This document shows positions 1-20,900 of a stretch of 31,052 nucleotides of DNA, piece by piece. Position numbers and translations under genes: made by a program. Below the pieces are notes generated by a model. The model was not told the DNA's origin. It made no database searches and was given only the letters and a program-made list of their open reading frames with translations. Positions within the stretch are counted from its first letter, which is position 1; each line of letters opens with the position of its first letter. Origin of the DNA: Macrostomum lignano (lineage: Eukaryota); the NCBI GenBank assembly GCA_002269645.1, contig NIVC01002134.1:1-31052 (forward strand). The letters run 5' to 3'.

Positions 1-625
1 CCATCGAGGTAAATTTTTTGCTCGAAAGTATCGTAATAGACGTTCCTTTAACGAGCGGATAAATCGTTCAGCCATGCTTGCCTTGTAATTGCTTTGGCCT
101 AACAAAAAATCGAACTCCTTCCTGTTTCAGCATTTGACGTGTAGCTCTTCGAGAAACTCCATACCAGCATCACCTTGTAAATAAACAGGCTTAAAACCAC
201 TTCGAAAAATCTCTAGTAATACTTGACTAACTTCTGAAGGCTTCTTTGTACGCAATGGTCTTAGTCGTACAACTCTAGTAAAACAGTCGATAAGAACAAG
301 TATGTAACGATAACCTCGATTTTCCGTCTTGTATTGAGGTAAATCTGCCAAATCGATTTGAAACTGAAACTTTGCAACTGGTGGCACACTAATTTTTGGA
401 GTTGGAAAGTTTCGTCGTGTTTTTCGAAATAAATGATGCTCATTTGTTGATCGCACCCAATTATCAACTTCGCGCTTTGCAACTTTGTTCGTAATCTGTG
501 GAAACTTTTTACGTACTTCACGAACAAGTATAGTCTTGTTACCACTAAATGAAGTAGGCCTGTTCAAGTTAAAAAAAGCATCCGTCAAAAAATTCTTCAA
601 TTTCCTTACGCACTCGCTTCATCAT
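1..625 (-). pseudogene. Polinton-type DDE (rve) integrase, three frameshifts, runs off the window edge
   Basis: ORF 127-600 has FQIDLADL (D1) and LQGDAGMEF (D2). The shifted downstream frames read RQMLKQEGVRF and then SNYKASMAERFIRSLKERLLRYFRAKNLPRW (catalytic E). The shifted upstream frame from ATG 625/622 reads MMKRVRKEIEEF. Shifts map to A-runs at 587-592, 154-156 and 104-109. Confidence 0.88.
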
Positions 626-850
626 CAGTTAGATTGATGCTAGTCGTTTGACAGTTGCAACAAAAGAACGAAGCCTCGATCGAATCTCCGTCAGTATCCT
701 CGTTGTGCTCCTTTCCAGAAACGGCACACATTCAGATTTTATGCAAAAAAACTCACAGAGACGAATCAAAAGTTTTTGGAAGATAGATGACATGGTTTGT
801 CTTATTAAACTATATATTTTTCATAAACAAAAAATTAACCTTTTTAAAAA

Positions 851-857
851 GCTTATA
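851..857 (-). promoter_or_regulatory. TATAAGC motif (candidate element late promoter), copy 1
   Basis: GCTTATA on + strand, in the gap between ORF 905-1594 and the small ORF/integrase. Confidence 0.5.
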
Positions 858-904
858 GTGCTCGAATCAATTTTTTAAAACGTAATCTGTAATTTTAAAA
901 CAAC

Positions 905-1594
905 TTAATTCAGTGTTTGATAATTTTCAAACAGACTAAGATCCTCCTTTGCAACAGTTTTTGGAGCAGACATTAGCTCGTTTCGTACATGACGCCCGAT
1001 TTGGTTTGCTGCGATTCCACGTTTTCGAAGAAAGTCTAAAAATGTTTTTAGTCCACTAGGCGGTTGAGTCTCGTGTCGCTTAAGCGGTCTGTCTCGAACA
1101 ACATATTCCATGAGATCTTGTATCTCGGCATCAGTCAAATTAGCCAGCATTGGTTCTGCATTCTTGTCCATGTCCGAAAATAGGTTTTGAGCGAGAGCTT
1201 CGAAACGTGGTAAAAAAACTTTAGGAATTTCCCTTGATTCGCTGGCATATGAACTTCTTACAGTAGTCCCTTTGCGAACAAGTGACAGATTGTCCTCGTC
1301 TCCAGTGCGATAGACTTTGCGCAATTTTAAAAGTTTGTCTTCCAATCTGCTTCGTTTCAATTGAGCTGTGTAATTTGGCTCCTTTTCCATTTCCTTGTCC
1401 AAGTTATCCATTTGGTCTCTCATTTCCACCATATTTTTTGCCAGAGCATCTTGCGGTGCGTCTAAAACTTCAGTTTTTCGAGGTGTCTCAGCAGTTGGTG
1501 ACGATCCTTGCTCTGCACCTTGACATGCAGATTGATACACAGATTCAGGTACTAGATACATTCGTTGAAAACTACTACTCTCGTTAGTTCGCAT
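905..1594 (-). CDS. Polinton hypothetical protein (229 aa, predicted coiled-coil; N-terminal RMYLVPE resembles the KMVLVP motif of Polinton ORFs at this position)
   Basis: Long ORF starting 8 nt after the stop of the upstream core-like ORF; conserved syntenic position; charged helical centre. An alternative start is at 1561. Confidence 0.65.
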   Translation of the reverse strand: MRTNESSSFQRMYLVPESVYQSACQGAEQGSSPTAETPRKTEVLDAPQDALAKNMVEMRDQMDNLDKEMEKEPNYTAQLKRSRLEDKLLKLRKVYRTGDEDNLSLVRKGTTVRSSYASESREIPKVFLPRFEALAQNLFSDMDKNAEPMLANLTDAEIQDLMEYVVRDRPLKRHETQPPSGLKTFLDFLRKRGIAANQIGRHVRNELMSAPKTVAKEDLSLFENYQTLN

Positions 1595-1602
1595 TATTCC
1601 TA

Positions 1603-2031
1603 CTACTTTCGTTGAATTGATCGTATTAAATTCGCTGCTCCCGCGGCGGTACCAACTACTCCAGACGTTATCCCAAGCGCAGTGCTTATAGCAGGTAGAG
1701 CGGCAATAATTGGAGCCAAAAAAGGTAAAAATCCTCCGTGTTGGACAAGTATTTTCCTTTTTGCAGTAATTGGAGTCTTCTGTTCCAAAAGCTGGCGTAT
1801 ATATCTGCGATGCTTCTCAAGTCGTCTTTTGTTACAGTTACTAATTTTAATACGTCCACTAATAATATTAAACAGAAAGTCTACTAGACATCGTATCTCC
1901 GACTCTGAAAGTGTTTGTAAAAAACTTTTTCTCTGCTTTGGATGCTTTAGCCGATAAACAATTTGTAGTAAAAAAGCACACTGACACAATGAGCGAGCAT
2001 TTTGTTTTCCTTTTTCTGTTAGTTCGCTCAT
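1603..2031 (-). CDS. Adintovirus/Polinton virion core-like protein with an adenain-type cleavage site followed by a hydrophobic helix
   Basis: Basic N-terminal half (RCLVDFLFNIISGRI, RRLEKHRRYIR) followed by ILVQHGG/FLPFLAPIIAALPAI, matching the LxQxGG-FLP pattern of Polinton core proteins. ATG at 2031. Confidence 0.75.
   Translation of the reverse strand: MSELTEKGKQNARSLCQCAFLLQIVYRLKHPKQRKSFLQTLSESEIRCLVDFLFNIISGRIKISNCNKRRLEKHRRYIRQLLEQKTPITAKRKILVQHGGFLPFLAPIIAALPAISTALGITSGVVGTAAGAANLIRSIQRK
1684..1690 (-). promoter_or_regulatory. TATAAGC motif, copy 2 (inside the upstream ORF, about 95 nt before ORF 905-1594)
   Basis: GCTTATA at 1684-1690 on + strand. Confidence 0.4.
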
Positions 2032-2075
2032 TCTTAAAAACAAATTCACAAAATTTTCTATTACACAATTAATCT

Positions 2076-2084
2076 TTGCTTATA
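2076..2084 (-). promoter_or_regulatory. TATAAGCAA motif, copy 3
   Basis: Just after the penton stop, 53 nt upstream of ATG 2031. Confidence 0.55.
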
Positions 2085-2086
2085 AA

Positions 2087-3076
2087 TTAGTCCGACCTAT
2101 GTTTAAAATGCAGTACGACAACAACGTGTGCTCCCGGATCAAAATTAAACGGTTTTCCGCGCTGGTCCGATAGTCGAATCGAAATCTCGTGAATTTGTTG
2201 TCGATTTGTTTTCAAGTAGTAGGGTGTTTGCAATGCACTGCTATCGCGTATAAGTTCTCCGTTTTTCTTTTGTTGGAGTTCCACAACTCGAAGCAACGGT
2301 ACTGATGTACTTCCCACTGCTTGATACTCGATTATATCTGTGTAACAGTACATGTAAACCGTTTTACTAGGCATCGGAGAAGGTAGCACAGCATCCAAGT
2401 AGGTTTTGTTAATGCGCCAAACACGATTTCTCAACCAATATTGGTGTACTTTGATGTACACTTCTCCTTCCGTTTTTCGAAGATAGTCTCCATGCGAAAC
2501 AAGTCGTATAGCTTCACCAGGCGATAGAACACAATAAAAAACATAATAGTTCTCAGGTACTAGCGCTAGAGTATTGTCGAGACTTTTTATCAAATCCAAG
2601 TATGAACCATCCGGTGGTTGTACACTACCAGCGGCAGGTTTTGATAATTTTTCCGAGACAAGTCCAGAAAGTTTCTTCCAAGAGTCAAATTTGAAAGCGT
2701 CCATAAATGTAACTGGTAGTTCTAATCCAATAGTTTTTTCGCCTGAATTTCGTAAAAGCCAGGCAAATTTTTCATCTGTACCAGACGGTTGCCAGGAAAC
2801 GTAAGCATCCAAGTCTGCCTCTGCCCAAACACGACCCCAATAGTTTTTCTTTAATCGTATTATTGAGTCAATGTCCGCAAAATATGGAACTTCAAATCGA
2901 CGCTCACGATGAGCATTTGGCGTCGTAATTGCTCCATGGCACAGTAATTCAACTAGTGCAACCTCGAAGAATCCGTTCAATAAATTTATTGGTTCAGTTA
3001 GTCGCACTCGAAATTCATTAGGCGAGTTGGTTTCGTAACTGATATCGTTTGACGGCAAAAAAACGTAAAAACTCAT
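2087..3076 (-). CDS. Minor capsid protein (penton, single jelly-roll) of Polinton/adintovirus
   Basis: N-terminal FYVFLPSN..NSPNEFRVRL..PINL..FEVALVEL and C-terminal MYCYTDII...VPLLRVV...IHEISIRLSDQRGKPF..VVVVLHFK are characteristic of Polinton pentons. ATG at 3076. Confidence 0.85.
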   Translation of the reverse strand: MSFYVFLPSNDISYETNSPNEFRVRLTEPINLLNGFFEVALVELLCHGAITTPNAHRERRFEVPYFADIDSIIRLKKNYWGRVWAEADLDAYVSWQPSGTDEKFAWLLRNSGEKTIGLELPVTFMDAFKFDSWKKLSGLVSEKLSKPAAGSVQPPDGSYLDLIKSLDNTLALVPENYYVFYCVLSPGEAIRLVSHGDYLRKTEGEVYIKVHQYWLRNRVWRINKTYLDAVLPSPMPSKTVYMYCYTDIIEYQAVGSTSVPLLRVVELQQKKNGELIRDSSALQTPYYLKTNRQQIHEISIRLSDQRGKPFNFDPGAHVVVVLHFKHRSD

Positions 3077-3118
3077 TTTGAAATAAAACACAAACTAATA
3101 TTGACAACAGTTTATAAT

Positions 3119-3127
3119 TTGCTTATA
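3119..3127 (-). promoter_or_regulatory. TATAAGCAA motif, copy 4
   Basis: Just after the ATPase stop, 51 nt upstream of the penton ATG 3076. Confidence 0.55.
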
Positions 3128-3133
3128 ATAATA

Positions 3134-3823
3134 TTACACAAACTTTGCATCACATTCACGAGTATAGACAACTTGTTCATCACCAGAAAATATTCCTGTT
3201 CTCAATCGTAAAAAATCTGGTGTCACTTGCCGCAGGTCAATGAATAAATATGAAAAAGGTTTGTTATTTGTTGCGTCTTCATACACATTCACTAGAAACC
3301 TACTATTACGCGGATACATTTGTCGACCGAGATGTTCAACTGTGGTTCGATCGCGCACACTACGAGTTAGACAAATATAACTAGCTGATAAACTTCGCAT
3401 GCGTGCTTCTGGATCAGACTTGTTAAAAAGACCTTGACAAAGGTACAGACAAGTCAAAGGGATATGATGCGCATGCTTTGTAAACATACTAGTAAATTCT
3501 GGCAACTTAGCAATCTCGCTTTGCAAGTCGTCAACAACAACCAAATCGTGTGGTAAAAAACGATTAATCATCTGTGGTGTGAATTCGGGTACAAAAACAA
3601 TAGGGTCAAGACCGCTTTTTTGCCAGCATGTTCTAATTCGTTGTTGATCGTCTGGTTTCAAACTTGATCCATGGCACCAAACAAGACGGCACGGTTTTTT
3701 ATCAAATAATTCTTTTCGTTCAGTCAACAAACGCAACGTCCATTCAGTTTTACCCGAGTTTGAAGGTCCAGCAATAATAAATGTAGAATCGTGAGCTAGT
3801 TGCATATTGTATGGCTGCTGCAT
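3134..3823 (-). CDS. A32/FtsK-family genome-packaging ATPase
   Basis: Walker A IIAGPSNSGKT, Walker B VVVDDLQ, plus RHH-like KHAHH, LCQGLF and YLFIDL..TPDFLRLRT motifs typical of Polinton ATPases. The ATG is 2 nt after the PLA2X stop. Confidence 0.93.
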   Translation of the reverse strand: MQQPYNMQLAHDSTFIIAGPSNSGKTEWTLRLLTERKELFDKKPCRLVWCHGSSLKPDDQQRIRTCWQKSGLDPIVFVPEFTPQMINRFLPHDLVVVDDLQSEIAKLPEFTSMFTKHAHHIPLTCLYLCQGLFNKSDPEARMRSLSASYICLTRSVRDRTTVEHLGRQMYPRNSRFLVNVYEDATNNKPFSYLFIDLRQVTPDFLRLRTGIFSGDEQVVYTRECDAKFV

Positions 3824-3825
3824 TT

Positions 3826-4269
3826 TCAAGCACCAAAGCGTTGCTTAACTTGCATAACCTTGGTAACCAACTTCGCAGCTAGTTTTTCTTTCCAACCAGT
3901 AGACGGATCGTGGGCAATCTCTCGTGCACCAGATTCTAATAGCTTATCAGCTTTTAACCTCTCTTGCACGTCAGAATTTTTATCATAGGCCACGTCGTGA
4001 AGCATGCACAAATTGTCAAGCCGATTAATTCCTCGTTGTCCTTTTGCTAGCCTAGCTTGCAGTTGCGTACCTGGACCACAAAACTGATATCCGCCGGGTA
4101 AATGTGCTTCAAATGGTAAATGATTAATTAACCAATTTACGACACCATAACCTTGTTGCTTTTTATTAATCTTTCTAATAGATTTCTTCTTTTTACGAAT
4201 GCTCTTCTTTTTCTTTTTAAAACCTCGATCTTTCGCTGGAGACATTTTTACAACATATATTTTAGGCAT
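3826..4269 (-). CDS. PLA2X: parvovirus VP1u-like phospholipase A2 domain virion protein
   Basis: LPGGYQFCGPGT Ca-binding loop and GINRLDNLCMLHDVAY with the HD dyad; Lys-rich N-terminus. An alternative start is ATG 4245. Confidence 0.88.
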   Translation of the reverse strand: MPKIYVVKMSPAKDRGFKKKKKSIRKKKKSIRKINKKQQGYGVVNWLINHLPFEAHLPGGYQFCGPGTQLQARLAKGQRGINRLDNLCMLHDVAYDKNSDVQERLKADKLLESGAREIAHDPSTGWKEKLAAKLVTKVMQVKQRFGA

Positions 4270-4281
4270 AAATTTTTAAAA

Positions 4282-4290
4282 TTGCTTATA
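4282..4290 (-). promoter_or_regulatory. TATAAGCAA motif, copy 5
   Basis: In the dUTPase-PLA2X gap; 21 nt upstream of ATG 4269 and 45 nt upstream of ATG 4245. Confidence 0.55.
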
Positions 4291-4341
4291 GTATTTACAA
4301 AGCTCTCGCATAGTGCACCAATCACCAAAGAAAAAAATCAG

Positions 4342-4347
4342 TTTATT
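4342..4347 (-). terminator. Polyadenylation signal for dUTPase
   Basis: AATAAA on the minus strand, 13 nt after the dUTPase stop. Confidence 0.5.
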
Positions 4348-4360
4348 ATTATTATTATAC

Positions 4361-4843
4361 TTATTGGCCAGTGCTGCCAAAGCCGCCAAAGCCGCGCCGC
4401 TTGGTCGGCGGCTCAATCATCCGAATCGAATTGTCTGCTTCAGTCACATAGACTGAAGCAAGCACGGCCTGCTCCAGAACCAGTTGTGCAATACTGAGCC
4501 CGGCATAGTACTCAAAGTCTTCCGGACTGTAATTAAACAAGACTATACAGATTTCACCAGTATAGTCGGGGTCGATTACGCCACCGCCAACAAATAAGCT
4601 GTGCAGAGCCATGCTGGAACGTCCCGCTATCCTGCCATAGGTACCAGGCGGTAAGCGAATTTTGAGTCCGGTTCGCACACTCCGGGACTCGTAGGCCGGA
4701 ATGGTACCATCGACGCCAGCGCAAAGATCATACCCGATCGACCCGACAGTTTTTCGGGTCGGAATCGTTGCCGAATCGTATAGACGTTCAACTAAAAGCT
4801 TACGATCAGTTAGTTGTTGTTGCTGCTGCTGCTCGGGATTCAT
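4361..4843 (-). CDS. dut: Trimeric-type dUTPase
   Basis: All five motifs present: GYDL, IAGRSS, GVIDPDYTG, IAQLV, RRGFGGFGSTG. The likely start is ATG 4843 (MNPEQQQQQQ), preceded by a strong ttttaaactttcag acceptor at 4858. Confidence 0.95.
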   Translation of the reverse strand: MNPEQQQQQQLTDRKLLVERLYDSATIPTRKTVGSIGYDLCAGVDGTIPAYESRSVRTGLKIRLPPGTYGRIAGRSSMALHSLFVGGGVIDPDYTGEICIVLFNYSPEDFEYYAGLSIAQLVLEQAVLASVYVTEADNSIRMIEPPTKRRGFGGFGSTGQ

Positions 4844-5029
4844 GTCGATTCTTGTAGCTGAAAGTTTAAAAAAAAGTTTTTTTTCTTGAAACATGAACGA
4901 TAGCACTACATTTACGTCTACTACAAACACAAGCTTAGTCTTGAGAATCTAACTATAAAAAATATACTTTTTCAAATAATTAAACACAAAAAAGTGCTAA
5001 AATTATAATTTAAACGAATGCCGGTATCA

Positions 5030-5039
5030 TTTATTTATT
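5030..5039 (-). terminator. Tandem polyadenylation signals after polB
   Basis: AATAAATAAA on the minus strand, about 100 nt after the polB stop at 5136. Confidence 0.5.
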
Positions 5040-5135
5040 GTAAATAATGATCAATGAAAAAATTAATGATGGGTTACAGTCTTCTATAGCATGCTATTAC
5101 TTTGTACAACAAAAGAGATCAGAGCATATTGTTAA

Positions 5136-5466
5136 TTAATTAGCCAAGTGCCAGTGTCCAAAGGGTAGCGAATTAATTGAACTTGTCCAGGATCGCTTCG
5201 TATCGAAGAAGCTTAGTGCAAGTTTTCTTTGTTGCATCAAAAAAAACTTTCTGTTTTCGAGAACGAATGGACTGCATGCGCGAAAACACAAGTTGTCGCT
5301 TGTGTAAGACTCTTAAATAGTCTTGATGCTTTAAACTGCTCTGTGCGGCTTTAGAAGCAGTACTGCTCCAGCTTTGCGACCGATTGAGACTGGAACTTTA
5401 AACGATTGCTGCTTAACTAGACCGGACCGGACTGGACCGGACCGGACTGGACCGGACTCCCCGCGC

Positions 5467-5498
<32 letters not shown>

Positions 5499-6230
5499 AC
5501 CACCACCGCCGCCACCACCACCACCACCACCGCCACCACCACCACTGCCGCCGCCCGCCCCCACACCACCGTGGGACGTATTTGTTGACAGTGTGCTTGC
5601 ATGGCTTTTGCGATAAACGCAGAGCATCAAGTCTAGCTGCTCGATTGCTCTATATTGCCAATTACTACCTCGAGATTGAAAATTGTCAATTTTTATTAAC
5701 AACTGATTAATAACGCGTGCGAACCAGTCATTGTAGGCCTCGGGAGATAACAGCATGTCACTGTTTGCAATCGTCTCATCAAATGATATTGTCGCAATGT
5801 TGGTATTAAAATAGACCGAAATGATCTCTTCGCTGCTCGAGCCATCGTTGTCGTCTGCTGCTGTTTTCGGTCGAAATAGTGTCACTTTCAAGTGAAAGCA
5901 GACTCTTATTAATAAACTGGGTGAGCCAATTTTTTCCAATATTTTAAATATTGGTTCTCTTAAAGACGCAATCAACTCGCCAGGAAGTAACTCGCCAGAG
6001 CTGTTGCCTTGTTGCTCAAGAGTGGGAGTAAATTCGACAAAATTTACCCGACCACGATGAGCTGACTCGCGCAAAGCGATGGACCACCCATCTGGTGGGT
6101 TTTCGATCAGGTTTTGCAGCGATCCGGTCAGTAATCGTTGCGGTGAAAAACAAGCACCATGCGAGTGAGCATGCAGCTCGGCTTGATTACTGAACTTTTT
6201 TCTGCAGATTTGGCATTGTGCACGCGGCAT
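5136..6230 (-). pseudogene. polB: Protein-primed family B DNA polymerase remnant: N-terminal region and extreme C-terminus only, catalytic core missing
   Basis: N-terminal part has a C2H2 finger (CQICRKKF..LHAHSH), ESAHRGR and IDNFQSRGSNWQYRAIEQLDL. The C-terminal part, read across frameshifts, is QDYLRVL..RMQSIRSRKQKVFLMQQRKLALSFFDTKRSWTSSINSLPFGHW*, matching the Polinton PolB tail K.ALS.FDDKR...LP.GH. No exonuclease or YxDTDS motifs are present. Confidence 0.82.
5420..5570. repeat. GC-rich microsatellite: 8x GACCG/GACTG pentamer followed by a (CCG/CCA)n tract
   Basis: Directly visible; translates as poly-Gly in the polB frame. Confidence 0.95.
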
Positions 6231-6453
6231 TGTGTGCACCTAGCTCGACAACGAGCGTATCGAGCATAATATTAATAGATGATCCGGTTTGTCATTTGCG
6301 GCTGTAAGAAAAATGATGATTTGGTTAGTTATAGGTATAGCTGACACGTTTACTATTAGAGAAAACAATTGGTAAATAAATAAAAAAAGACAAAATGTTT
6401 GTAAAAGAATGCATCGCAACTGCGATTTGACAGCAATTGTTTACTTGTTAAGT

Positions 6454-7011
6454 TTAGTTATTAACAGAGATTAAAAAATCCTTGACATGGTTAAGAATAT
6501 TATTCAATTCATGAGTGTTTTGAACGCCCATAATAACAAACTTTTTCGAAAAAAATATGTTACAAAAAAGCCTTGGTTTTGATGCTGATCTAACAGAAAC
6601 TGCTTGTGGGAAATTTTCTGCATCGTATCCAACCAGATAATTCGAATAGTAGCCTGCATATCTTTTTAGACTAGAGAAACCGAATTTTGGCCAAAGATGA
6701 CCAATAAAGCCGACATAGGTACTGCTCTGAATTTTTACTGAATCAAAATCTACACAATTAATAGTGTCGTTGATAAATCGTAAAACTGAGACTATCTGAG
6801 AATTTGATTTACAGCCATATATAGTTAGTTTTCCTGCTGGATAAAGTTGGATTTTAGCATTTGAATAAATTGTCTTTAGCATTGTTGGTCGGCTTAGGAA
6901 TAGTTTGCAAAACCGGTTTCTGGTCTGTAGCTTCTGTTTGGTCTGCTTTAAATCAAATTTTTCAAACGGGTGCAGCTTCAGACTCGCAGTAACTATTAAT
7001 AGGACAAGTCG
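6454..7011 (-). CDS. Divergent TATA-binding-protein-like protein (both TBP repeats); 5' end lacks an in-frame ATG and begins at a splice acceptor
   Basis: The frame is open from 7011 to 6454 (185 aa plus stop), longer than the tracked ORF. It aligns by eye to the TBP core: IVTASLKL..FDLK ~ NIVATVTL..LDLK; RNRFCKL ~ PKRFAAV; IQLYPAGKLTIYGCKS ~ ALIFASGKMVVTGAKS; VKIQS ~ FKIQN; YDAENFP ~ YEPELFP; KPRLFCNIFFSKKFVIMGVQ ~ KPKIVLLIFVSGKIVLTGAK. Confidence 0.85.
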   Translation of the reverse strand, partial: RLVLLIVTASLKLHPFEKFDLKQTKQKLQTRNRFCKLFLSRPTMLKTIYSNAKIQLYPAGKLTIYGCKSNSQIVSVLRFINDTINCVDFDSVKIQSSTYVGFIGHLWPKFGFSSLKRYAGYYSNYLVGYDAENFPQAVSVRSASKPRLFCNIFFSKKFVIMGVQNTHELNNILNHVKDFLISVNN

Positions 7012-7220
7012 CTAAAACGGAAAATAAATAATAAGAAAAGTTAAACATGACTATACTATCGTAAATTCTAATATTAAATTACAAAACCTGGTTAGCGTAC
7101 AAGGAGTAGCAAACAATGTTTTGAGCTTTTCCCTAAAAAATAATATTTCCCTAGCCAAAAATTTGATAAATATAGTGGAATAAGTTAGTTAAAATTGGAT
7201 AAAATTAGTCAAAAATTTTG

Positions 7221-8419
7221 TTACTCATCATCAGAGCTGCTGTACGAGTCGTCCGATGAAGACACGCTAGCTGTAGTAGCGTCCGCAGCAGCACGCTTTA
7301 AAAATGCTGTCTCCTTGGACGCTACCCTGGTTCCAGAGGCAGGTGTACTCACCAAGATCTTTGCTGGTGGAGCCTCCACCCAGTCTGTGCCATCTGCACC
7401 AGCTTCGGCAGAATTGTTTTGCTGTTTTGCACCGCTGCGTTTTCGAACTTGCTTTTTAGGCGGTGGTTCAATAGAGGCTGGCGCTGCATTCGATGTAGTC
7501 GACTTCTTCGATACGGTGGTGGTAGACCGACGCTTTGCAGGTGACTTGGCAGGTGTCACCTGGCTTGAATTCTGCAGGCTTTGTTCATTTGCTTCTTCTT
7601 GCTCACAGGTAGATGTTGGGGACGGACTCCTGCTTCTAATTGCTGACTTGGTCGCGGGTAGGTGTGCAAGCACTCCCTTGAACATGTCGAGGCGCTGCAA
7701 CATGTTGTCGGAAGATTCTATGAGTGTCAGAGAGCGCACAGCGAATGTAATGCGCCAGACGAGGCAGCCTTTTGGACAATACAAGCTCGTTGCTTGCACT
7801 GTCATTTGGTAGGTACCGCTGACACCTTTGAAATCGGAAATGGACACCTCCTTCCCGTGTGGATGATCGTTGCTGATCCTGATTGTGGCACAAGGGTAAG
7901 CAGGCTTTATAGCCAGCCATTGTTGAGGCACAAACTCGAGGACGTCGTTAGCATGCTGATGAGCTGGTTTTGTTAGTCGTGCCAAGGGTCGAGCATCTTG
8001 AATCTCGTTCAACTTGACCGATAGACCTTTTTCGACTTGACTGCAAAACATTATATAAATTATGAATATAGTTTCCTAAAATTAATTGTATAAATTTAAT
8101 ATGGTGCTCACCGGAGAGAGTGGAAGAGTTCCTTATCGCAGCTGTCTGGATGAAATTGGACACTTACTGCGTCGCGAGAGTCGTGTCTGCAAGACGGATG
8201 ATCGAGCTCTGGCCTTTCTGCGATTCCACGAAAAAGCTCCATTGGAGCCTTGGTTTGCAATATAATTGGGTACCATTTTGTACACTCGATTGATGGTTTC
8301 CACGCAATAGATCGAAACTGGCAGGACGAACCAGTCGTGGTTGTAGACTGCTCTCCAACGTAAAAAATCGGACTCGAGTCGGAGCGTACAATTGACTCCG
8401 TCTTGATGCAAGCTGCCAT
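7221..8419 (-). CDS. Two-exon orphan gene, 375 aa (exons 8419-8112 and 8040-7221), with a Ser/Lys-rich, acidic low-complexity C-terminal tail
   Basis: A 71-nt AT-rich GTGAGC...TTTTGCAG intron (8111-8041) joins tracked ORFs 8108-8419 and 7221-8051 in phase 2. ATG is in gacATGG context with an upstream TATA box. Confidence 0.75.
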
Positions 8420-8497
8420 GTCTTACAAGCAATTGAATATAGTATTTCTTTTGCTGTAATGATTGAGCTCATGAAAAATTGACTATTTCGGGTCTTG

Positions 8498-8505
8498 TAT
8501 TTATA
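8498..8505 (-). promoter_or_regulatory. Canonical TATA box (TATAAATA) of the 375-aa gene
   Basis: TATTTATA on + strand, about 80 nt upstream of ATG 8419. Confidence 0.55.
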
Positions 8506-9109
8506 GCAAGCATTGCATGCTGTTTGTGAACTAGTAAACAAATTTAATTGTTGCGTGCTGATTAAGACATTGTTGCGTGCCAAAGGTGGCATAAGTTTCT
8601 AGGGTGGGTTGCATGATTAGGTCTAATTTTACGCAAATGTAGGTTGATATTTTATACAATAAAATTAATGAATCTTAGGCACACTAGTTATAAATTTGCA
8701 AGAGTAACACGATGGCAAGCGTTTAATAAGAAGACTGCTGGTTGCTGCTTCATTAGATTGGTTTTGTTCTCAAGTAGAATGTAATTAAAATATTTTGCGA
8801 CTTGAAAAATTAGCAATCTTGGATTTTAGAGTAAAAATAAGCTGCACGCGGTGCTATGAAATTAATTTATTGAAAGTTTTGCTTGCATGTTGGAATTTTT
8901 TAGCTCGCACGGTGACAAGAGATTGCTTGAGTAACCTATATATAGAGTGTTACTTTTCAAACAGAAAAATGTATAGTTGTAACTCAGCTTTTGCAGTCCT
9001 ATATTGAGCAGAAGCTATATAGAGTTACACTATAATGCTGCGACACGCAGCTTGTTGGGACTATAATGACTGCCGCTGCTATAACCGCATGCAGTCAGTG
9101 CAGTTGACA

Positions 9110-9920
9110 CACAAATGCTGTTTGGACTAAGCTAAATTACTGTGTTGAGACAGTTAAGCTGGACCACGGCTAAATCACTATTGATACGGTTAATTGCTAC
9201 TAGACCCATGGCTAAATCACTGTACGTTGAGACGGTTAAGCTGGACCACGACTAAATCGCTGTACGTTGAGACGGTGGTTAAGCTGGACCATGGTTATAA
9301 AACTGGACGGGTGGTTAAGCTGGACGACTACAGCTAAAATTACTGTTGAGTCAGTTATGCTAGACCACAGCAGCCAAATCACAGTTGAGGTAAAGCTGAC
9401 CATAGCTAATTCTCACTGTTGAGACGGGTGCTGCTGCTTGGCTCACAGCTAAATAACTGGACAGTTAAGCTAATCGGACTACAGCTAAATCCCTGTTGAG
9501 ACAGTTGCCTGGACCACAGCTAAAATCACTGTTGAGGCAGTTAAGTCTGGACAACAGCTAAAATTACTGTTGAGACAGTTAAGCCTTGACTATAGCTAAA
9601 TCATCGTTGAGGTAGTTAAGCCTGGACTATAGCTAAATCACTGTTGATGCAGTTTTAAGCTAGACCACAGCTAAATCATACTGCTGAGGCAAAAAAGCCG
9701 GACCACGGCTAAAAACTGTTGGGGCAAAAGCTGGACCACAGCTAAATCATACTGTTGAGGCAAAAGCTGGACCACAGCTAAATCATACTGTTGAGGCAAA
9801 AGCTGGACCACAGCTAAATCATACTGTTGAGGCAAAAGCTGGACCACAGCTAAATCATACTGTTGAGGCAAAAGCTGGACCACAGCTAAATCATACTGTT
9901 GTGGCAAAAGCCAGACCATG
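9110..9920. repeat. 36-bp tandem repeat array (GGCAAAAGCTGGACCACAGCTAAATCATACTGTTGA)
   Basis: Five nearly perfect copies at 9723-9902, progressively degenerate copies leftward to about 9110. Confidence 0.9.
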
Positions 9921-10175
9921 GCTAAAGAAACGTATGAAAAAAAATTATTTGCATGGATTAATAATTTTTGTTTAATGATGACTGTACAAGATATTGACTT
10001 TATATTGAATTAAATAATTTCAATGAATGGTGAATAAAATTGAAAGATTTTTTTAGAATAATGAATTTATAGAGATTATATTATTGATTACAGACTTGTT
10101 TGATATATACTAAAAGAGCAATTACTTGGACACATTGCTGGCAAAATTTTATGAAGAGTTAGAAAAAATGTCTTT

Positions 10176-11037
10176 TTAAGATAGGTCCCAATATTCAAAT
10201 ACTTGAGTTGTATTACAGGTCTTTGCTAATTCTACTTGGTAGAAGCCTGTGCTCATTTGAGAGACTTTTACAGACTTGATGTCCTTCTGTACAATAATTG
10301 GCGAGTTTAGCAGCGGTTGAACTTGGCTAGAAATAGCAATTGATGATGATGGTGTTTCAGTTGCTGTCGTTGGTTTGGTACTTGTAGGCTTACTGCAAGT
10401 TTGCTTTGTTGGGTCATTGTAGCTGGTTGGTGATGGTGGTGGTGGTGCATACTGCAGTTGGTCAGTTGGTCGTGGGTTCGATTGCTGCCTAATTGACTGA
10501 ATAACATCAGTTCTTGTGTAAATGCGATCTAGCTCAGTTGTCTGTCTCTCGACATGAATCGAGGTTACTCTGGCGAGAGATGTAGAATATGATGCTCTTG
10601 CAGCAGAATTGGATGTGGTGGTGTCGTGGCAAATGCGTTTGCACTGATCTGGAGGTGGCCGCGTGAAGAAACCATTCTTGAATGCTATAATAATGGATAA
10701 GATGAGGGAAATTTGGTATAGGTGCATGTATACAATGTATATAGAAACTGAACTAGCAGAGAATCAGTCTAAACAGAAACCGAACTAGCAGACAATCAAT
10801 CTAGAAATTCTGAACTAGCAGAGTATTAGTCTAAACAGAAACCGAACTAGCAGACAATCAATCTAGAGACTGAACAAACAGAGGATCGGTCTAAACAGAA
10901 ACCGAACTAACAATCAATCTAGAAACTAAACTATAGCGAACAGTCAATCTAAAAAAGAAAACTGAACTAGAGTAGGTGATTATCTTACCTTGTTTAACAT
11001 AGCGCTCGGCCAATTCCTGCTGACGTGATCGCTTCAT
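10176..11037 (-). CDS. Two-exon orphan gene, 185 aa (exons 11037-10989 and 10684-10176), Thr/Pro/Ser-rich
   Basis: ATG 11037 (MKRSRQQELAERYVKQ), strong donor AAG|GTAAGA and acceptor ccattattatag join in phase 1 into tracked ORF 10176-10727. A (TA)n TATA-like tract lies at about 11125-11136. Confidence 0.55.
10745..10970. repeat. Degenerate ~60-bp tandem repeats (AGAAACCGAACTAGCAGACAATCAATCT-containing) inside the predicted intron
   Basis: Three to four recurring units are visible. Confidence 0.8.
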
Positions 11038-11447
11038 TTCACTTAAGATGTAAGTATAGTTGAACAAGTAGTATAATGTAAACTTGGTTTAAGTTATTTA
11101 ATATTTTCTGTGTCAGTGTGTTCGTATATATATATAGTATAAAGAAGAAGCATGTTGACGCAGTTGTTGACATAGTATCTGTAAACCATCTGCTCAAGTT
11201 GGTGCAAAAATTCTATAGGCACTCAAGAATAGATCATTTACTATCTTTCTTCAAAAGGGTGATAATATTCACAAGTTTTCAATATTTCAATAACACTTGA
11301 AATGTGTGAATAGCTTTGGAGTAAATTTGTCTTGAATGGAATCCTTTGAAGTGTGTTTGTGTCACCATTGCTAGAATCGGTTACTTGTATTTTGGACAGG
11401 TGGATATGCAATTCGTCTGAATAATCACGTTGCGTAAAAGATATTTA

Positions 11448-11516
11448 GCGTGCACTTGGAATTTCAGACTGCGTGCACATGGAATTTCAGACTGCGTGCA
11501 CATGAAATTTCGGACT
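11448..11516. repeat. Three 23-bp tandem units GCGTGCACATGGAATTTCAGACT (candidate subterminal repeat)
   Basis: Units at 11448, 11471 and 11494. Confidence 0.9.
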
Positions 11517-12064
11517 CTGCCATTTTTTTGGGCCTGTACTTACTATGTATTTCGCCATAAGGAAATCGGCTTTGTGTCAAAAAAACGTATACTACTAGCA
11601 GGATATGGCGGATGCATGTGGGGAGGTGAGCTGGTTTGCCTTTTTCACAGGTCAGTTCAAATCTCCCTGCCGCCTGGTTGAGGGCTTGAATTTTCCGATT
11701 CGAGAACTCTTTGAGAAGCGGCCTAGAGCTGTATAGAGCTCTCCGCTCCGCTGGATGGCAACTTTCCCGTCCCATTTCCATTCCTAGCTTGCCTTCCCAC
11801 CGTTCGTCTTTCCCTTCTCTCCAACGGACTGCTCGTAGCTCCGAAGCGATAATCAGACACAATATGATAGACTACTCAGAGGCAAGACTTTTCTCACAAT
11901 TGCTGTAGAGTCAAGACTTACATTAAAGTGTGTGTAAAGCATTAGCGATCTCTCAAAAGTGTTGTTTTAAGAGGAAAGCACTAACCAATTAGCTTATAGC
12001 AAAGTTGTTTCACCCCCCCCCCCCACAATCTATCTGTGATGACGTCGAAGATTGCTTAGTTATT

Positions 12065-12663
12065 GATAGATTGTCTATGGTTTTGGAGGCAGACAATGGT
12101 AGATTGTGTCTATGGTTTTGGAGGCAGACAATGGTAGATTGTGTCTATGGTTTTGGAGGCAGACAATGGTAGATTGTGTCTACGGTTTTGGAGGCAGACA
12201 ATGGTAGATTGTGTCTACGGTTTTGGAGGCAGACAATGGTAGATTGTGTCTAGGGTTTGGAGAAAGACTATGGTAGATTGTGTCTACGGTTTTGGAGGCA
12301 GACAATGGTAGATTGTGTCTAGGGTTTGGAGAAAGACTATGGTAGATTGTGTCTACGGTTTTGGAGGCAGACAATGTTAGATTGTGTCTAGGGTTTGGAG
12401 AAAGACTATGGTAGATTGTGTCTACGGTTTTGGAGGCAGACAATGTTAGATTGTGTCTACGGTTTTCGAGAAAGACCATGATAGATTGTGTCTACGGTTT
12501 TGGAGGCAGACAATGATAGATTGTGTCTAGAGTTTGGAGAAAGACTATGGTAGGTTTTGTCTATGGTTTTGGAGGCAGACAATGTTAGATTGTATCTAGG
12601 GTTTTCGAAAAAGACAATGATAGATTGTGTCTAGGGTTTTCGAGAAAGACAATGATAGATTGT
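12065..12663. repeat. 35-bp satellite/minisatellite, left array (GGTTTTGGAGGCAGACAATGGTAGATTGTGTCTAC), with a variant unit giving a ~69-bp dimer
   Basis: Roughly 17 tandem units are visible. Confidence 0.95.
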
Positions 12664-12665
12664 TA

Positions 12666-13502
12666 TGTCACGTTATTGGCGTAGTGGCTAGGACCCTTAA
12701 AAGGGCCGTTTAACGGGAATCGTCGTAAGTCGTTGTAGTCCCAAAATGAATCGAAGTCAACTCTTGTAAAGTGGATTGTGTAGCGGAGCACTTGGCGTAT
12801 AAGGGCAGGAAACTGCCGTAGTTAATTTATTTTTGAGATCAATATTCAAACGGGTTAATGTCAATACAGAACTTATCGCACTTTGGGACACTGGCGGCTG
12901 CAACAATGGTTTTAAAGGTAATTTAGAATGACGAAGTCGAGTAGCAGGCGAAGGATACAATGGCGACGCAACGTAGTGAGTGATGGCGATGAGCACAGTG
13001 GAGGCAGTGAGTAGTAAGTAAACAGGCAGATACCTGGTAAGTAACGGTGAGAGTGGCGTTAGCCGTGGCAGTACACAGTGGAGTACGGAGTGTAGACAGG
13101 CTGGCCCAGACAGAGGAGCCGTGGCGAGAGATAAGGAGGCTCGAGGCAGCCAAGAGAGAGAGAAGGAAAACGAGAGCCAGACGCCCGAAGCCAGAAGTGA
13201 GGAGGGGGCCCCAGCCCGCCGCCAGGCGGGGGGTTAATAAAGAGCGCAGAAGGGTTAGCATAAAACACGGAGAGTTTTCATTGGCTGGCGAGAGAACTTG
13301 AAATCATCGATCGTGGTAAAATTTACAGACGAACGCAAGGCCTACCAAATACACAGTGAATTAGCAATTGATACAGATTATTTGCACGCTACTACAAGTA
13401 ATCGTTAAAATAAACTATTGGAGAAACTTAGATGAGACATTGCGAGGGAAACTATAGTCCAACGGCCCTTTTGCGGGACCACCTTAAACTAGCAACGTCA
13501 CA
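12666..13502. mobile_element. 837-bp insertion with TG...CA ends and imperfect inverted termini (solo LTR or non-autonomous TIR element)
   Basis: Interrupts the 35-bp satellite mid-unit. TGTCACGTT versus the reverse complement of AACGTCACA match 8/9. A perfect subterminal inverted 12-mer AAAAGGGCCGTT / AACGGCCCTTTT is present. AATAAA at 13236. No clean TSD. Confidence 0.6.
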
Positions 13503-14180
13503 GTGTCTACGGTTTTCGAGGCAGACAATGGTAGATTGTGCCTATGGTTTTGGAGGCAGACAATGGTAGATTGTGCCTATGGTTTTGGAGGCAGACAATG
13601 TTAGATTGTGTCTACGGTTTTCGAGAAAGACAATGATAGATTGTGTCTACGGTTTTGGAGGCAGACAATGGTAGATTGTGTCTAGAGTTTGGAGAAAGAC
13701 TATGGTAGGTTTTGAAGGCAGACAATGTTAGATTGTATCTAGGGTTTTCGAAAAAGACAATGATAGATTGTGTCTAGGGTTTTCGAGAAAGACAATGATA
13801 GATTGTGTCTACGGTTTTCGAGGCAGACAATGGTAGATTGTGCCTATGGTTTTGGAGGCAGACAATGGTAGATTGTGCCTAGGGTTTTGGAGGCAGACAA
13901 TGGTAGATTGTATCTAGGGTTTGGAGAAAGACAATGGTAGATTGTGCCTATGGTTTTGGAGGCAGACAATGGTAGATTGTGCCTATGGTTTTGGAGGCAG
14001 ACAATGGTAGATTGTGCCTAGGGTTTTGGAGGCAGACAATGGTAGATTGTGCCTAGGGTTTTGGAGGCAGACAATGGTAGATTGTATCTAGGGTTTTGAA
14101 GAAAGACAATGGCAGCTTGTTTCTATGCTTTTGGAGGCAGACAATAGTAGATTATGTCTATGGCTTTGGAGGCAGACAAT
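13503..14180. repeat. 35-bp satellite, right array
   Basis: The same unit resumes immediately after the insertion; roughly 19-20 units. Confidence 0.95.
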
Positions 14181-14990: not shown

Positions 14991-17284
14991 TCACTTTCTT
15001 GGTAGCGTTGCTGGCAGTTTGGACTGAAATTCATTTTAATATTGGTGAATTGAGAAAGTATGTTTGATAATGTAGTGCACAGATTTTTTATCTATCTGTT
15101 CACTTTAAAAATTAAAAAAATACATCAGAATAAGCTAATAGCTACCTTCTGTATTGACGAATGAAATCGTTTCGTTGACTTGCGCAGAATCTGAAAAGCA
15201 CAGAAGAAACGATGGAAGCAAATAATATTGAATGATTTAGTGGATTTTACGTTTTAAAGTGAAACATATCCAAAGAATGATGGGTTGTAGCCTACAGGTT
15301 AAGAGCGTCGGTCTCACGACTGAAAGGTCGGGAGTTCGATTCTCGACCCACTCCTTGAGTAAGACCGAGCTGTACAATAGGTGCCAGCATTAGCTGGGTA
15401 ATTGAGGGTGTGTGGAGCCCCCCAGTCCTTGGTCTGAACAGCCGTACGCAGCCTTCAGATGCGCCATGCAATAGCTGTGTCTGAGCTTTCGGTTACACAT
15501 CTGCCTATTAGTGTGTAATCAATCAGTATTCAATTAAAAATGATTATAATGACCATTGTCGTTATTGTGGTTATTGTCGAGAAAAATGATGACAATAAAC
15601 TGAAAATGAAAAAAAGATGCAACCAAAGAGCCAGAAAATTACCAGCATGTTTCTCTCCACAATGAGTCGCCTAACAGCTGCCACATCGCTGTACCGATCG
15701 TCTTCAACGCTGACGCTGCTGCCCCACGGCAAGGTGCGCGACGTCTCCGGATGCGGAGCTCCGATGACGGCCAGCGGTGATGGCAGCACCCGCTGACCCG
15801 GCTGCGGTGCCTGCTGCTGCTGCTGCAGCTGCTGCTGAATCGGCAGCAGGAATTGGTGCACAGCGATGCCGAAGCGTTGCAGATCGGCAGCCACGGCACT
15901 TTTACGATCATTGAGCTCGTCAGCCGTGTAACTGTCCGCTTTAGCCAACACAGGGACCAAGTTCACCTGCGCGAGGTTTTAGTTTTATGGATTGCACTAA
16001 CAGTCGCAATAAATCAGAAACAAACTTGGAGCTCACTTTAAGACAGTCATCGCATTAGTAGTCCTATTAGTGCACAACCATTTGGCACACTGTATATATT
16101 ATTAGATTATGCTTTTCTTGCTACTCCTAGTAGAGAATTAAAACGAGCTAGATTTCCGATACCTAAATGTGCACCAATACTTTAGATTAGCTGACGCACT
16201 TTAAAATTTTTATACAACCGGCGAGAGGCATTACTGCCCATTCCAGATACGTACGCGGTCATACGTGTACGCACAGGCACACACTCACACAGGAGTGTAC
16301 AGCGGCCCTAACTTTACCTATCGTTAGGCATGTACAATTCACTGTGCCTTGGGGGTCGGCTCAAGGCCGTTAATTGCTCGAGCAGAGCCAAGCCGAGATT
16401 CCAATTCAGCTCGTAGCTCCGAATTAATGTGACTGCACTTGGAATCGAGCCTGGTCCGAGTGCATATCCTATAAGAACGCCGCGATAGACCACTAGGCTA
16501 CGCGGCCACCTTTTCTGAGCATTGCTTGCTAGAATAAGTAAACTACATGTAGCAGAACGAGTTAAAAGCTTTCTACCTTGTCCTCGAGGTACTTTAAAGC
16601 CAAAGCGTCGCATCTGCGCAGGCCCCGGCCTCCAATTGGCGGCAGAAAGTACAAACAGCAGTGGACTCGTTCGTCCTCTTCCGGACGAAAATCGAATTGA
16701 TTGACGGCTCTGGTGTTGACATAGCTGGTCACCTGTAGGTTTTTAGAATTTACAGTACTCATATTTATATTAATTTTAACTTTTTAATGATTCGAACAAA
16801 TACGAACCTGTTTGGCTAAGAAATCAGCAACCGAAGTCCATGGGCTTCGGTTGCTTTCGCCAACAGTGTAATTAACTGTACTCATCAGTCGGACCGTCAG
16901 TCTACGATTGTTGCCGCTTAGAAACGACTGTTGTTGCTGCTGCTGCTGTTGCTGAGTTTGTGATTCGTTTAGTGACTCAATTGTTGAGCTGGAGTCACCT
17001 AAGCAGAGCTTCTCTTTCAGCACGCTGACGGGAAACTCTCTGGATGGGTCGGCCCCGGCAGTGACAGCCACCGCGCGATCTTTGTCTTCCCGTAGGCCTG
17101 CGGCTCTCACTCCGAACAGAGTCTCAAGGAAGGTCACCTTTCCTAAGCCGTCCTCGCCAATTGCGAGCAGGTTGAAGCAGGCCGGCTTGCTTAGCAGGTA
17201 GTCGATGGTCTGCGACTCGAGGCACTGGCGCAGGTAGGCAGCTTCTTGCTGGCCAGTTTGTTGCGTTTTCGTACCGGATTCCAT
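14991..17284 (-). CDS. Divergent septin (SEPT6-group-like), 344 aa; exons 17284-16808, 16732-16577, 15966-15643, 15190-15146, 15023-14991
   Basis: FNLLAIGEDGLGKVT (P-loop), RVHCCLYFLPP, VNLVPVLAKAD (G4), LAVIG..RTLPWG..VED (septin unique element). All GT-AG junctions are phase 0. The last two short exons are less certain. Confidence 0.85.
15282..15540 (+). mobile_element. tRNA-derived SINE-like insert in septin intron 3
   Basis: A box TAGCCTACAGG (15288-15298), B box GTTCGATTC (15334-15342), degenerate cloverleaf with a 6-nt anticodon loop, then an unrelated body and A-rich end. The 3' boundary is approximate. Confidence 0.6.
16200..16507 (-). mobile_element. Second tRNA-derived SINE-like insert in septin intron 2
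   Basis: Minus strand begins GGCCGCGTAGCCTAGTGG (A box), with a variant B box GGCTCGATTCC and a CCCAAGGCAC core-like motif. The 3' boundary is approximate. Confidence 0.5.
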
Positions 17285-17970: not shown

Positions 17971-20900
17971 TCACTTCACCTCGAAGACGCTATTGTTGGA
18001 GTTCCCGCCGCACTTCTCGCCCGGGTTGCCGCCGCAAGCCACGTTGCAGTTGGCATTGGCGGTGTCGCCGCTGTTTCCATACTGATTGCCGCAGCCGCAG
18101 ATTTTGCCGTTCTTGACGCCGAAGTAGGAAAACTTCTTGGCCTTGCAGATTTTATTGCACTTCCACACAGTCATGCGGTTGGACACCATGGCGACGGTGA
18201 AGTCCGGATACTCCGGGTCGTCCAGGTAACAGCCGAGGAATCCTTTAATGATCGAATGGGCGATGTATGTAAAGGTTCGATACAACTACTTATAGTAGTA
18301 GCTGTGCGGTAACAACGTCTTTCTATATTGCTGGCAAATGGGTACTTAAATGAGCGTGCATTAAACAATCGTTCAGTCGCCGTACGCCTTCCATATTTGT
18401 CAGTGTACTTTAAAAACTAGCCATTTGCCAGCGATGTCCATTTACGTCAAGTCACATGAAGCAATGATTATCTCGTATAAAAAATTAAATTTTATCGTTA
18501 AGCTATCTAAATTAAACAAACAAAAAACAATCTTACCTGGATGCGGCTTCACACAAATTCGACGAGTAACAGTTCGACAAGGGCATTCTGAAAATTTTAA
18601 GTTGTTTGCAGCCAAAATTGAGGTTTTATTTAGCGCTTCAGTATCTATAATCTTACTCAATGATACTTTATCATCTTGACTTTAGCTCCTTGAAAAGGCT
18701 GGCTTCCGAAGTAGGTAAGGTACATGTGACTGTCTACTTGTGAGTCAAACTTCGATTACCCATTTCGATAAACACCGCTTGAGAAATTTTTCAAGTCGTT
18801 AAAAATGTCTGCTACCTGGTATATTGATAAGTCAAAAGAGTACTCACTTCCTTTCAGCACTCTGGTCAGACCGCCACGGCTTGAGGGGAAGGCACTGAAG
18901 CTTAAATCGCCTCGGACACCTCGTCTGATGAGCTCCATGACCTGGGCGGAGAGTTTCATTAAGTAATTATTTGACTACATAATCTGAAATCAACCCTGCG
19001 GTCTCTCTACAAGCTCATAGAAAATCAATTTTACCTTATTGCTGACTTTGGAGTGAAGCCTAGAAAACTGTCCGTAGGTGACTTTGGCCAACTTAGCAAA
19101 GTTCTTTCCGTTCGTGCCGCACTGCCTGCCGCTGGCTACCGTGAAGAATCGGATTCTCTTGGCCTTCAGCTTGGCCTCCACGGCGCCCATCTTGCGCCTG
19201 TCCTTGGCTGAGGCGTCCGTGAACAGAATCATGACGGAGTTCGGCTCGGCAGCCTCGGCAGCGTCCAGAGCGCCCGACATCGCGAACTCGGGACAGTCGC
19301 CACCTCCTCTGGCCTTCAGCTTGTTGAGGAACCGATAGATCTTCGATGCGCTGGTTGTCTTCATCAGCTTCTTCTTGTAGGGATCGCCGAATGTGGCAAC
19401 GACGAAGTCGTCGAATCGCTTATTGGCAGCGATGATTTTGCGGATGTTGTTCTTCACGGACTTGATGACTCTGCCCATGCTGCCCGTAGTGTCAATGACG
19501 AACACCAGGGAGCCGAGGCTGCGATGGTCTGGCGCCGGCTTGCAAGAGCAGGTGCGGTAGGGCACGAACTTCTCCTTGGTGCCGAGCCGGCAAGCTGAGA
19601 ACGGATAGGATGCCAGATTTGATGCATAAACTATCGACGCTACTTAACTATTCTCGTTTATCTATCTTTATTCCAAACTATAAAATTCCATAAGTTCCCT
19701 AATTCCCTACAATGCTAACCGGTTATGCTTCAAATTCTATAAGAGCTGCTCGTAAGTGTGTTACAAGTATATACACTGTACAATAAATGTTATATCGTAT
19801 GTATCTCTCCTCACTTCCATTCATACAAACGTATATTAGACAGACGGATAATTGAATCCAATGGCGTCGCCATGGATTTTATGGTGGGGGGGGGAGACAA
19901 AGCCAAGAATTTTATTGATACATCTACATGTACGACCTACATGACTAAATTCCTACGTGTACATTATTTTCTGAGTCGGTGTTGCCGGCGCTCCTTTTTA
20001 GCGCCGCAGGCACTCATTTTAGCGCCGCAGGCACTCATTTTGGTACCGCAGAGACTCATTTTAGCGCCGCAGGCACTAATTTTGGCGCCGCAGGCACTAA
20101 TTTTAGCGCCGCAGGCACTCATTTTAGCGCCGCAGGCACTCATTTTAGCGCCGTAGGCACTAATTTTGGCGCCGCAGGCACTAATTTTAGCGCCGCAGGC
20201 ACTCATTTTAGCGCCGCAGGCACTCATTTTAGCGCCGCAGGCACTCATTTTAGCGCCGTAGGCACTTATTTTGGCGCCGCAGGCACTTATTTTGGCACCG
20301 TGCTTTCTCACCCTGCAGCAAAATTATTGATTTCCATACAAGGTTGGGGGGACAAAGCATTGGCATGACCCCCCCCCCCTTATCTTTTACTGGGGGGCAT
20401 GCCCCCCTTGTCCCCCCCGGTGGCGATGCCCCTGCATGAATCTTTTATTTATCAAAAATGCATTCTAAACGTTGCTTTACTGTATTACAGGACTTGCAAG
20501 CTGAAAGAATTACTTTAAAGACGACACGGAAAAACTTTCGAAAAATGGGCAGTGGAAAGAATACTCACTGGACGCTTCCAGCTCAATCCCCGTAGAGTAG
20601 ATGTCGTTTCTCCAGCTATTTCCGCAGTAGTTGGCCTTGTCGCCGGTGCACTGCATCCTGCACTCGATCTGGCTTCTCTTGCCGTGCTTACCGTAGCTGT
20701 TGCCGCACCAGCACTGCTTGGCAAATTGTACACCAAAGTACCTATAGCCGAGTCGTTTGCACTTTAAGCGGCACTTCAGGACAGACATGTCGCCAGTGGC
20801 AGCAAGCTTAGGCAGGTCGCGTTTGCGAGAATCGACAAAGCAGCCCATGTGCTTCATGCCCGGAGCTGGAGTGGGTGAAAGGTTCCGAAAAAATTGAATT

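Follow-up and report, generated by a model that had tools for sequence, protein, structure and literature searches.

The closest described counterparts of the promoter arrangement considered here are the late systems of beta- and gammaherpesviruses, in which a viral protein with the fold of TBP (the TATA-binding protein), ORF24 from KSHV (Kaposi's sarcoma-associated herpesvirus) or BcRF1 of Epstein-Barr virus (EBV), goes with the word TATTWAA about 30 bp before the transcription start (PMC12529657, PMC6541308; for these and the other papers cited below, the comparison is drawn from parts of the text). The DNA analysed here is a 31,052-nucleotide stretch (the window) of the Macrostomum lignano contig NIVC01002134.1. 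In this animal genome, positions 1-11596 of the window cover the right-hand portion of a Maverick/Polinton element, whose genes are on the minus strand, and a recurrent heptamer, TATAAGC, stands ahead of its late-type genes. By analogy, the element's system resembles that of the beta/gammaherpesviruses but is not a member of it. The two are alike in a viral TBP-fold protein with a more polar DNA-binding face, a non-canonical TATA-like word before structural genes, ordinary early promoters and, as we propose here, the use of host RNA polymerase II. They differ in that the element, of 15-18 kb, holds a bare TBP core of 185 amino acids; the acidic stirrup for TFIIB is kept here and is lacking in ORF24; one of the four phenylalanines, all of which ORF24 needs, is a proline here; and the word is altered at positions 6-7 here and at position 4 in the herpesviruses. 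None of the five other herpes-type activators was recognised among the 15 open reading frames (ORFs) of a full copy. If the proposal is true, the system would be far smaller than the six-protein herpesvirus complex.

Mavericks, Polintons and adintoviruses (Starrett et al., PMC8502044) share with this element the terminal inverted repeats (TIRs), a 6-bp target duplication, integrase, protein-primed DNA polymerase B (pPolB), PLA2X and, going by their putative assignments here, ATPase, protease and capsid genes; lineage-specific promoter words are not described in the parts of that paper used here. A term search of our library for Maverick promoter analysis, covering the main texts of Maverick papers (supplements and most subscription papers lay outside its scope), returned none, and TBP was found in those main texts only in figure legends of the adintovirus paper (PMC8502044) and its preprint; the paper itself has it once, for related elements. 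Virophages (mavirus and endogenous mavirus-like elements, EMALE, with Cafeteria roenbergensis virus, CroV; PMC10945749) are likewise small integrating viruses with one motif before many genes, and their different co-resident types carry different motifs. However, they borrow the cytoplasmic machinery of the giant virus, whereas our element has its own TBP, a canonical early TATA and likely introns, which point to the nucleus. Baculoviruses (PMC9786725) share the TAAG core with the words of three Maverick lineages discussed below (A, B and C), but start inside TAAG with their own RNA polymerase, while the spacing here agrees with a box that lies some 30 nt ahead of the start. In large double-stranded DNA viruses with TBP/TFIIB pairs, the divergent viral TBP has been proposed to act apart from host regulation (PMC7221094); in our elements no TFIIB-like ORF was recognised, and the acidic residues that contact TFIIB are kept. 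New here are the conservation of the word at the DNA level across families with saturated neutral sequence, and the presence of four different words in one host.

Conservation was followed through five families of the window's own lineage, lineage A (C424, C889, C4619, C3758 and C362), whose ATPases are 62-67% identical. C2529 and C3589 agree with C889 and are not counted apart; C1390, C1975, C2285, C1391 and C272, being near-duplicates or rearranged, did not enter the comparison. At fourfold-degenerate sites the five families agree at only 24-33%, and neutral sequence is therefore saturated. Conservation in related elements had been proposed as a check of the motif, and it is seen: of 35 orthologous slots, which precede the genes for PLA2X, penton, core protein, a small ORF with integrase, a pVII-like protein, major capsid and protease, 30 hold an exact TATAAG. 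It is kept in all five families before penton, core and capsid, in four before PLA2X (TATATGC in the C889 group), the small ORF (TATAAAA in C4619) and pVII, and in three before protease. The description of the motif as lying ahead of virion genes holds but is too narrow, as it also precedes the small-ORF/integrase unit and, in three of five families, dUTPase. The coding context of the boxes varies. The penton box is intergenic in one family, lies within the C-terminal tail of the ATPase in three and supplies its stop codon in one. The pVII-like ORF holds the capsid box in its basic tail, and the box reads xxT ATA AGC there in all five families (product of codon probabilities, 1.7e-7). Across 41.6 kb of late clusters, TATAAG[CT] occurs 35 times in the sense and once in the antisense direction, and it is absent from 49.5 kb of early and polymerase regions (seven copies). 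The 31 curated sites have G at position 6 throughout, by selection, and C at position 7 in 23, and do not fit TATAWAW. Avoidance of the word elsewhere is weak: TAT precedes AAG at 2 of 19 non-slot positions, whereas it stands before other A-codons in 40 of 114 cases (p 0.035). The canonical TATA expected for the early gene was found as TATAWAW within 300 nt upstream of its ORF in all five families, in the window as TATAAAA at 8650..8656 (-). Judged by sequence comparison, TATAAG(C) is almost certainly a real, conserved and strand-specific cis-element before late-type genes.

In the window itself, five exact copies of TATAAGC start at 851, 1684, 2078, 3121 and 4284 on the minus (coding) strand, as the earlier note had listed them; those at 2078, 3121 and 4284 extend to TATAAGCAA, and all but the 1684 copy, which is inside the core ORF, are intergenic. 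Boxes at 3121..3127 (-) and 2078..2084 (-) lie 51 nt before the ATG of the penton-like ORF and 53-54 nt before that of the core-protein ORF, counted from the first T, and both slots are kept in all five families. The 45-nt spacing given for PLA2X (box at 4284..4290, -) holds for its second in-frame ATG, the one that matches relatives; the first is at 21 nt. The box at 851..857 (-), kept in four of five families, is followed after 64 nt by the ATG (at 793) of a conserved small ORF, which comes before the integrase. The copy at 1684..1690 (-), 96 nt before ORF229, is family-specific and may be recent or chance: it is exact in one family of five, the C889 group has TATAGCG, and C4619, C3758 and C362 lack it. 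Nor are the two near-matches proposed for the ATPase, GATAAGC and TTAAGCAA, kept in the other four families; C4619 has a TATAAGC in a different place. Three more boxes of the window's family lie outside the window: TATAAGT 50 nt before pVII, TATAAGC 158 nt before capsid and TATAAGG 134 nt before protease.

The rough estimate that so many copies would not arise by chance is correct as a number: in window positions 1-4400 the expected mean is 0.26, and none of 1000 dinucleotide shuffles reaches five. The word was picked after looking, however, and some 7-mer with at least two G/C occurs five times in 77% of 200 shuffles of the same region, so that the window alone is no proof of a motif. Over the whole window there are nine copies against 4.4 expected, a count reached by 3 of 100 shuffles. 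It is the DNA beyond the window, in the orthologous families, that establishes the motif. In the host flank TATAAGC stands at 11992, 22645, 26863 and 27839, four copies in 19 kb, which is about chance level.

The candidate reader is a TBP-like coding exon of 185 codons at 6454..7011 (-; Pfam TBP, E 2e-7). It begins at a splice-acceptor-like AG (7012-7013) that is kept in six families and has no ATG of its own before the first strand, which suggests that it is spliced to an exon further upstream. Few DNA-binding proteins are as conserved as TBP, and the window protein is predicted to fold as the full two-repeat saddle with an altered DNA-binding face (predicted local distance difference test, pLDDT, 96; template-modelling score, TM, 0.62-0.77 to cellular and archaeal TBP; Foldseek E 1e-9). 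Repeat 2 keeps, invariantly, F134, P135, F153 and the acidic D130/E132 of the host TBP; in repeat 1 the phenylalanine pair is replaced by Pro42 and Tyr57. The TBP signature of four phenylalanines and two asparagines is thus incomplete, with F134 and F153 kept and both asparagines replaced, under what we take to be the residue equivalences with yeast TBP. In structures of TBP on DNA, the 5' TATA is read by repeat 2 and the 3' half by repeat 1, so the repeat-1 changes match a word altered at its 3' end. A TBP profile search returned 144 proteins at E 0.001 or better. Among the proteins examined, P0005-P0037 are short, divergent TBPs that have the Arg-Pro signature as well and form a wide family; they are encoded on short contigs and probably come from related elements.

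An RNA polymerase II TATA box has the consensus TATAWAW and lies about 30 nt upstream of the start site. At the 31 curated sites the homology-supported ATG is 41-165 nt from the first T, in 21 cases at 41-64 and never closer than 41. Extra ATGs occupy 15 of 806 positions before offset 33 and 9 of 1374 after it (p 0.017). Mavericks from other sources hold TATAAA or TATAAG in like slots, 43-90 nt before ORFs: in locus L084 the distance is 43 nt for core, 52 nt for penton and 90 nt for capsid, and in L081-L083 it is 45-48 nt for capsid. Four sequencing runs compared with window positions 1-5400 matched it with contigs, in which neither splice joints nor start sites showed, and no dataset that contains the element is recorded as RNA. 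The earlier note had left a TATA-type box and a TAAG initiator side by side. The box is likely TATA-type in its position, about 30 nt upstream of the start, and the initiator is the less likely of the two, since the cognate ATG is never closer than 41 nt and other Mavericks have TATAAA in the slots.

Taking these sequence comparisons together with the predicted model and the herpesvirus analogy, we think it on balance probable that TATAAG(C) is a variant TATA box read by the element's own divergent TBP. In this proposal, host TBP would transcribe the early gene, which may encode a single-stranded DNA-binding (SSB)-like protein, through its canonical TATA box, and the TBP exon would be spliced onto that early transcript. 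The viral TBP would then bind TATAAG(C), use host TFIIB through its kept acidic stirrup (D130/E132), and have host RNA polymerase II start about 30-37 nt downstream, giving each late gene its own short-leader mRNA. The ATPase and ORF229 are without a conserved box, and we propose that they are read from the mRNA of the gene upstream. A two-tier cascade had been suggested before. Its components stand, in the form of a conserved late cis-element, a canonical early TATA and a TBP-fold protein, but a strict order of host and then viral TBP is not general, as the other lineages indicate. A late box with a candidate reader makes the timing of Maverick capsid genes, and their need for a helper virus, testable with one protein and one oligonucleotide.

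Three more distant Maverick lineages of the same genome (B, C and D; ATPases 31-39% identical) also carry TBP-like ORFs, supported by Pfam in B (E 1e-22) and C (E 6e-20) and by alignment only, without a Pfam match, in D. Each has its own word, CTTAAGAA, TATAAGAA or TATAAATA, beside its own TBP-like gene. Lineage B has [CT]TTAAGAA 6-8 times per late cluster in 5/5 copies, lineage C TATAAGAA three times in 2/2 copies and lineage D TATAAATA six times in 2/2 copies; the copies are related within each lineage and amount to about one to two observations apiece. The words are exclusive, with 0-1 cross-occurrences, and the early genes of these lineages have TATATAA or TATAAAA. Lineages B, C and D might use the same scheme as lineage A, each with its own TBP and word. 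A tentative extension, which we would sooner doubt than accept, is that TBP and promoter form an orthogonal pair in each co-resident lineage (TATAAGC, CTTAAGAA, TATAAGAA, TATAAATA), a late-gene switch built on one protein, with a DNA specificity recoded several times, that insulates the capsid genes of each lineage from the host and from the other lineages. If this is true, the several natural TBP variants of one host, each with a different box, would lend themselves readily to studies of how TBP changes specificity. Scans of viral contigs found no relatives, and a metagenome scan gave four loci: three measure 1.6-2.2 kb, and the fourth is a partial element in whose available 12.8 kb no TBP ORF was seen.

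Several observations weigh against a viral TBP as the reader of a TATA-type box. Three of the seven sites first noticed (1684 and the two near-matches) are unconserved. The boundary for extra ATGs at offset 38 (23/961 against 1/1219) was chosen after looking, out-of-frame ATGs alone number seven near and eight far, and an initiator profile at +22 to +41 downstream of the word shows no peak. The phenylalanine-to-proline change is shared with lineages that use other words and with most of 24 aligned database relatives; it is therefore a family trait and does not explain the 'GC'. Even the TBP gene stands 53-80 nt behind the lineage word or a close variant in lineages B and C, for which reason the strict order of host TBP first and viral TBP second is not general. 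All four lineages examined carry a TBP-like ORF, with no TBP-less Maverick among them. The canonical TATAAA in lineage D and in L081-L084 requires no viral TBP, and titles in the Protein Data Bank (PDB) list wild-type TBP bound to the G(-26) and C(-25) TATA variants, which we take to be word positions 6 and 7; host TBP thus tolerates each change singly.

These last two points, and the presence in the host of both a TBP and a TBP-related factor (TRF)-like paralogue, speak for the strongest alternative, in which TATAAG(C) is a weak TATA read by host TBP/TFIID or a paralogue, lateness is due to amplified template or to some other activator, and the role of the viral TBP is a different one (decoy, repressor or early helper). 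We regard this as unlikely. Four lineage-exclusive words, of which CTTAAGAA is far from TATAWAW, coexist in one host, and G at position 6 is kept in the late slots of saturated families while early boxes stay canonical; a box read by the host would be expected to drift back to TATAAA.

More improbable is that TAAG is an initiator for the RNA polymerase of a helper virus, as in virophages, with starts inside TAAG. TAAG is indeed the common core of lineages A, B and C, baculovirus late transcripts start in TAAG with a viral polymerase (PMC9786725), and virophage types with distinct motifs are tied to different giant viruses (PMC10945749). Against this, TATAAA occupies these slots in lineage D and other Mavericks, and no cognate ATG falls within 40 nt at the 31 sites; ATGs are common at +9 to +30, where starts inside TAAG would put upstream starts in many mRNAs. 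Each element moreover has a TBP-like gene and a canonical early TATA, and no RNA polymerase ORF was found in the full copy C424 or in C84. A search of the source genome for RNA polymerase families gave 23 raw matches, which are unsorted.

We give slightly less credence still to an RNA-processing signal, a splice or trans-splice acceptor or a cleavage site that would divide a long late transcript into mRNAs of gene size. In its favour, several sites overlap or follow the upstream stop codon, the gaps of the C424 late cluster hold no AATAAA, and the element appears to use splicing elsewhere, at the TBP exon. Unlike that acceptor, however, the word has no pyrimidine tract before it; the lineage D word is without AG, out-of-frame ATGs lie within 30 nt downstream, and the words match TATA boxes of other Mavericks. 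That the word arose by chance, or as a side effect of constraint on the protein (Tyr-Lys, Ile-Ser, stop codons), is barely credible overall: although the word was chosen after looking, the 1684 site is unconserved and a capsid-embedded site is a conserved Tyr-Lys lost in two of five families, the word is kept in differing frames and intergenic DNA despite saturated synonymous sites, with a strand bias of 35 to 1 and absence from early regions, so that this explanation is refuted for the four intergenic window sites, and not for 1684 or the protease slot.

The element that carries the motif is abundant. A 1.2-kb probe gave 40 matches in the source genome, 22 of them full length at top score, and the natural whole copy C424 measures 14.7 kb between TIRs of about 100 bp. 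Its genes begin with the early ORFs and TBP and go on with the polymerase remnant, dUTPase, PLA2X, ATPase and penton, followed by core, ORF229, small ORF, integrase, pVII-like, major capsid and protease. The TIR at the element end in the window (11493..11596) corresponds to one that matches the other end at 95-96% in C424 and C753, and this end recurs in seven further copies; the 6-bp target-site duplication GACCGC flanks copy C3727, both flanks being readable in one of seven copies tried. C424 has a retroviral-type integrase (rve, E 4.5e-8, with chromo), the frames of which are interrupted in the window copy. The protein-primed polymerase is present in C84, a 96%-identical copy (DNA_pol_B_2, E 4.6e-20); about 3 kb of its gene are gone from the window copy, C424 and C753, leaving in the window an N-terminal remnant followed by a GGC/GGT repeat (5331..6230, -). 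On sequence grounds, the high-copy family is a recent burst of a polymerase-less derivative. Its 22 probe matches are near-identical, and TBP and the virion ORFs are open in the copies read.

The remaining genes of the window copy are all on the minus strand. The early gene (7221..8419), probably of two exons (8108-8419 and 7221-8051), likely encodes a single-stranded DNA-binding protein, an assignment to be read as a lead: the ESM Atlas gave 0.93 to viral clusters (DUF2738 in 10% of members) and a Pox_I3 row at 0.89. Pfam identified dUTPase (4361..4894, E 1.5e-29), the PLA2X-like ORF (3826..4269, Phospholip_A2_4, E 3e-9) and the core-protein ORF (1603..2031, Adeno_PX, E 2e-6). The packaging ATPase-like ORF (3134..3823), which is without a conserved box of its own, was assigned from a Walker A motif, position and weak Pfam P-loop matches. 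The penton-like, minor capsid ORF (2087..3076) was assigned from position and likeness to Maverick minor capsids; Pfam gave no match to it or to the capsid and protease ORFs. The capsid-like assignment follows gene order and a 33% match to the capsid-like ORF of another element. We take the names penton, capsid, protease and pVII-like from position and from general features of Maverick genes. The conserved ORF229 (905..1594) has no usable ESM Atlas match, and the small ORF with the 5' part of the integrase (1..793) has broken frames near the contig end.

A few further observations concern the elements and their surroundings. In L022 (4587-5250, -), C2529, C4619, C3758 and C362, an ORF for a deoxynucleoside kinase comes after the TBP exon or overlaps with it; in C362 the two share one open frame, and the kinase is absent from the window's family. 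Lineage B locus L041 has at 5129-5857, behind a canonical TATA and in the place of the lineage A SSB-like gene, a PC4-like ORF (Pfam E 8e-5, below the cut-off). Locus L020 (C105:570682-574517) has a 3.8-kb insertion with 240-bp inverted repeats within its penton gene, encoding ORFs of 260 and 287 amino acids that are capsid-like by eye. Subterminal tandem repeats with units of 36 nt and about 30 nt lie inside the window's element at 9130-9960 and 10716-10930. In the host flank, a 35-nt tandem array at 12044-14155 is interrupted by about 850 nt with short inverted repeats, and a septin-like exon lies at 16784-17284. A host gene at 17971-30900 has many WSC-domain exons and a VWA domain, with retroelement-like fragments interrupting it at 22866-24317.

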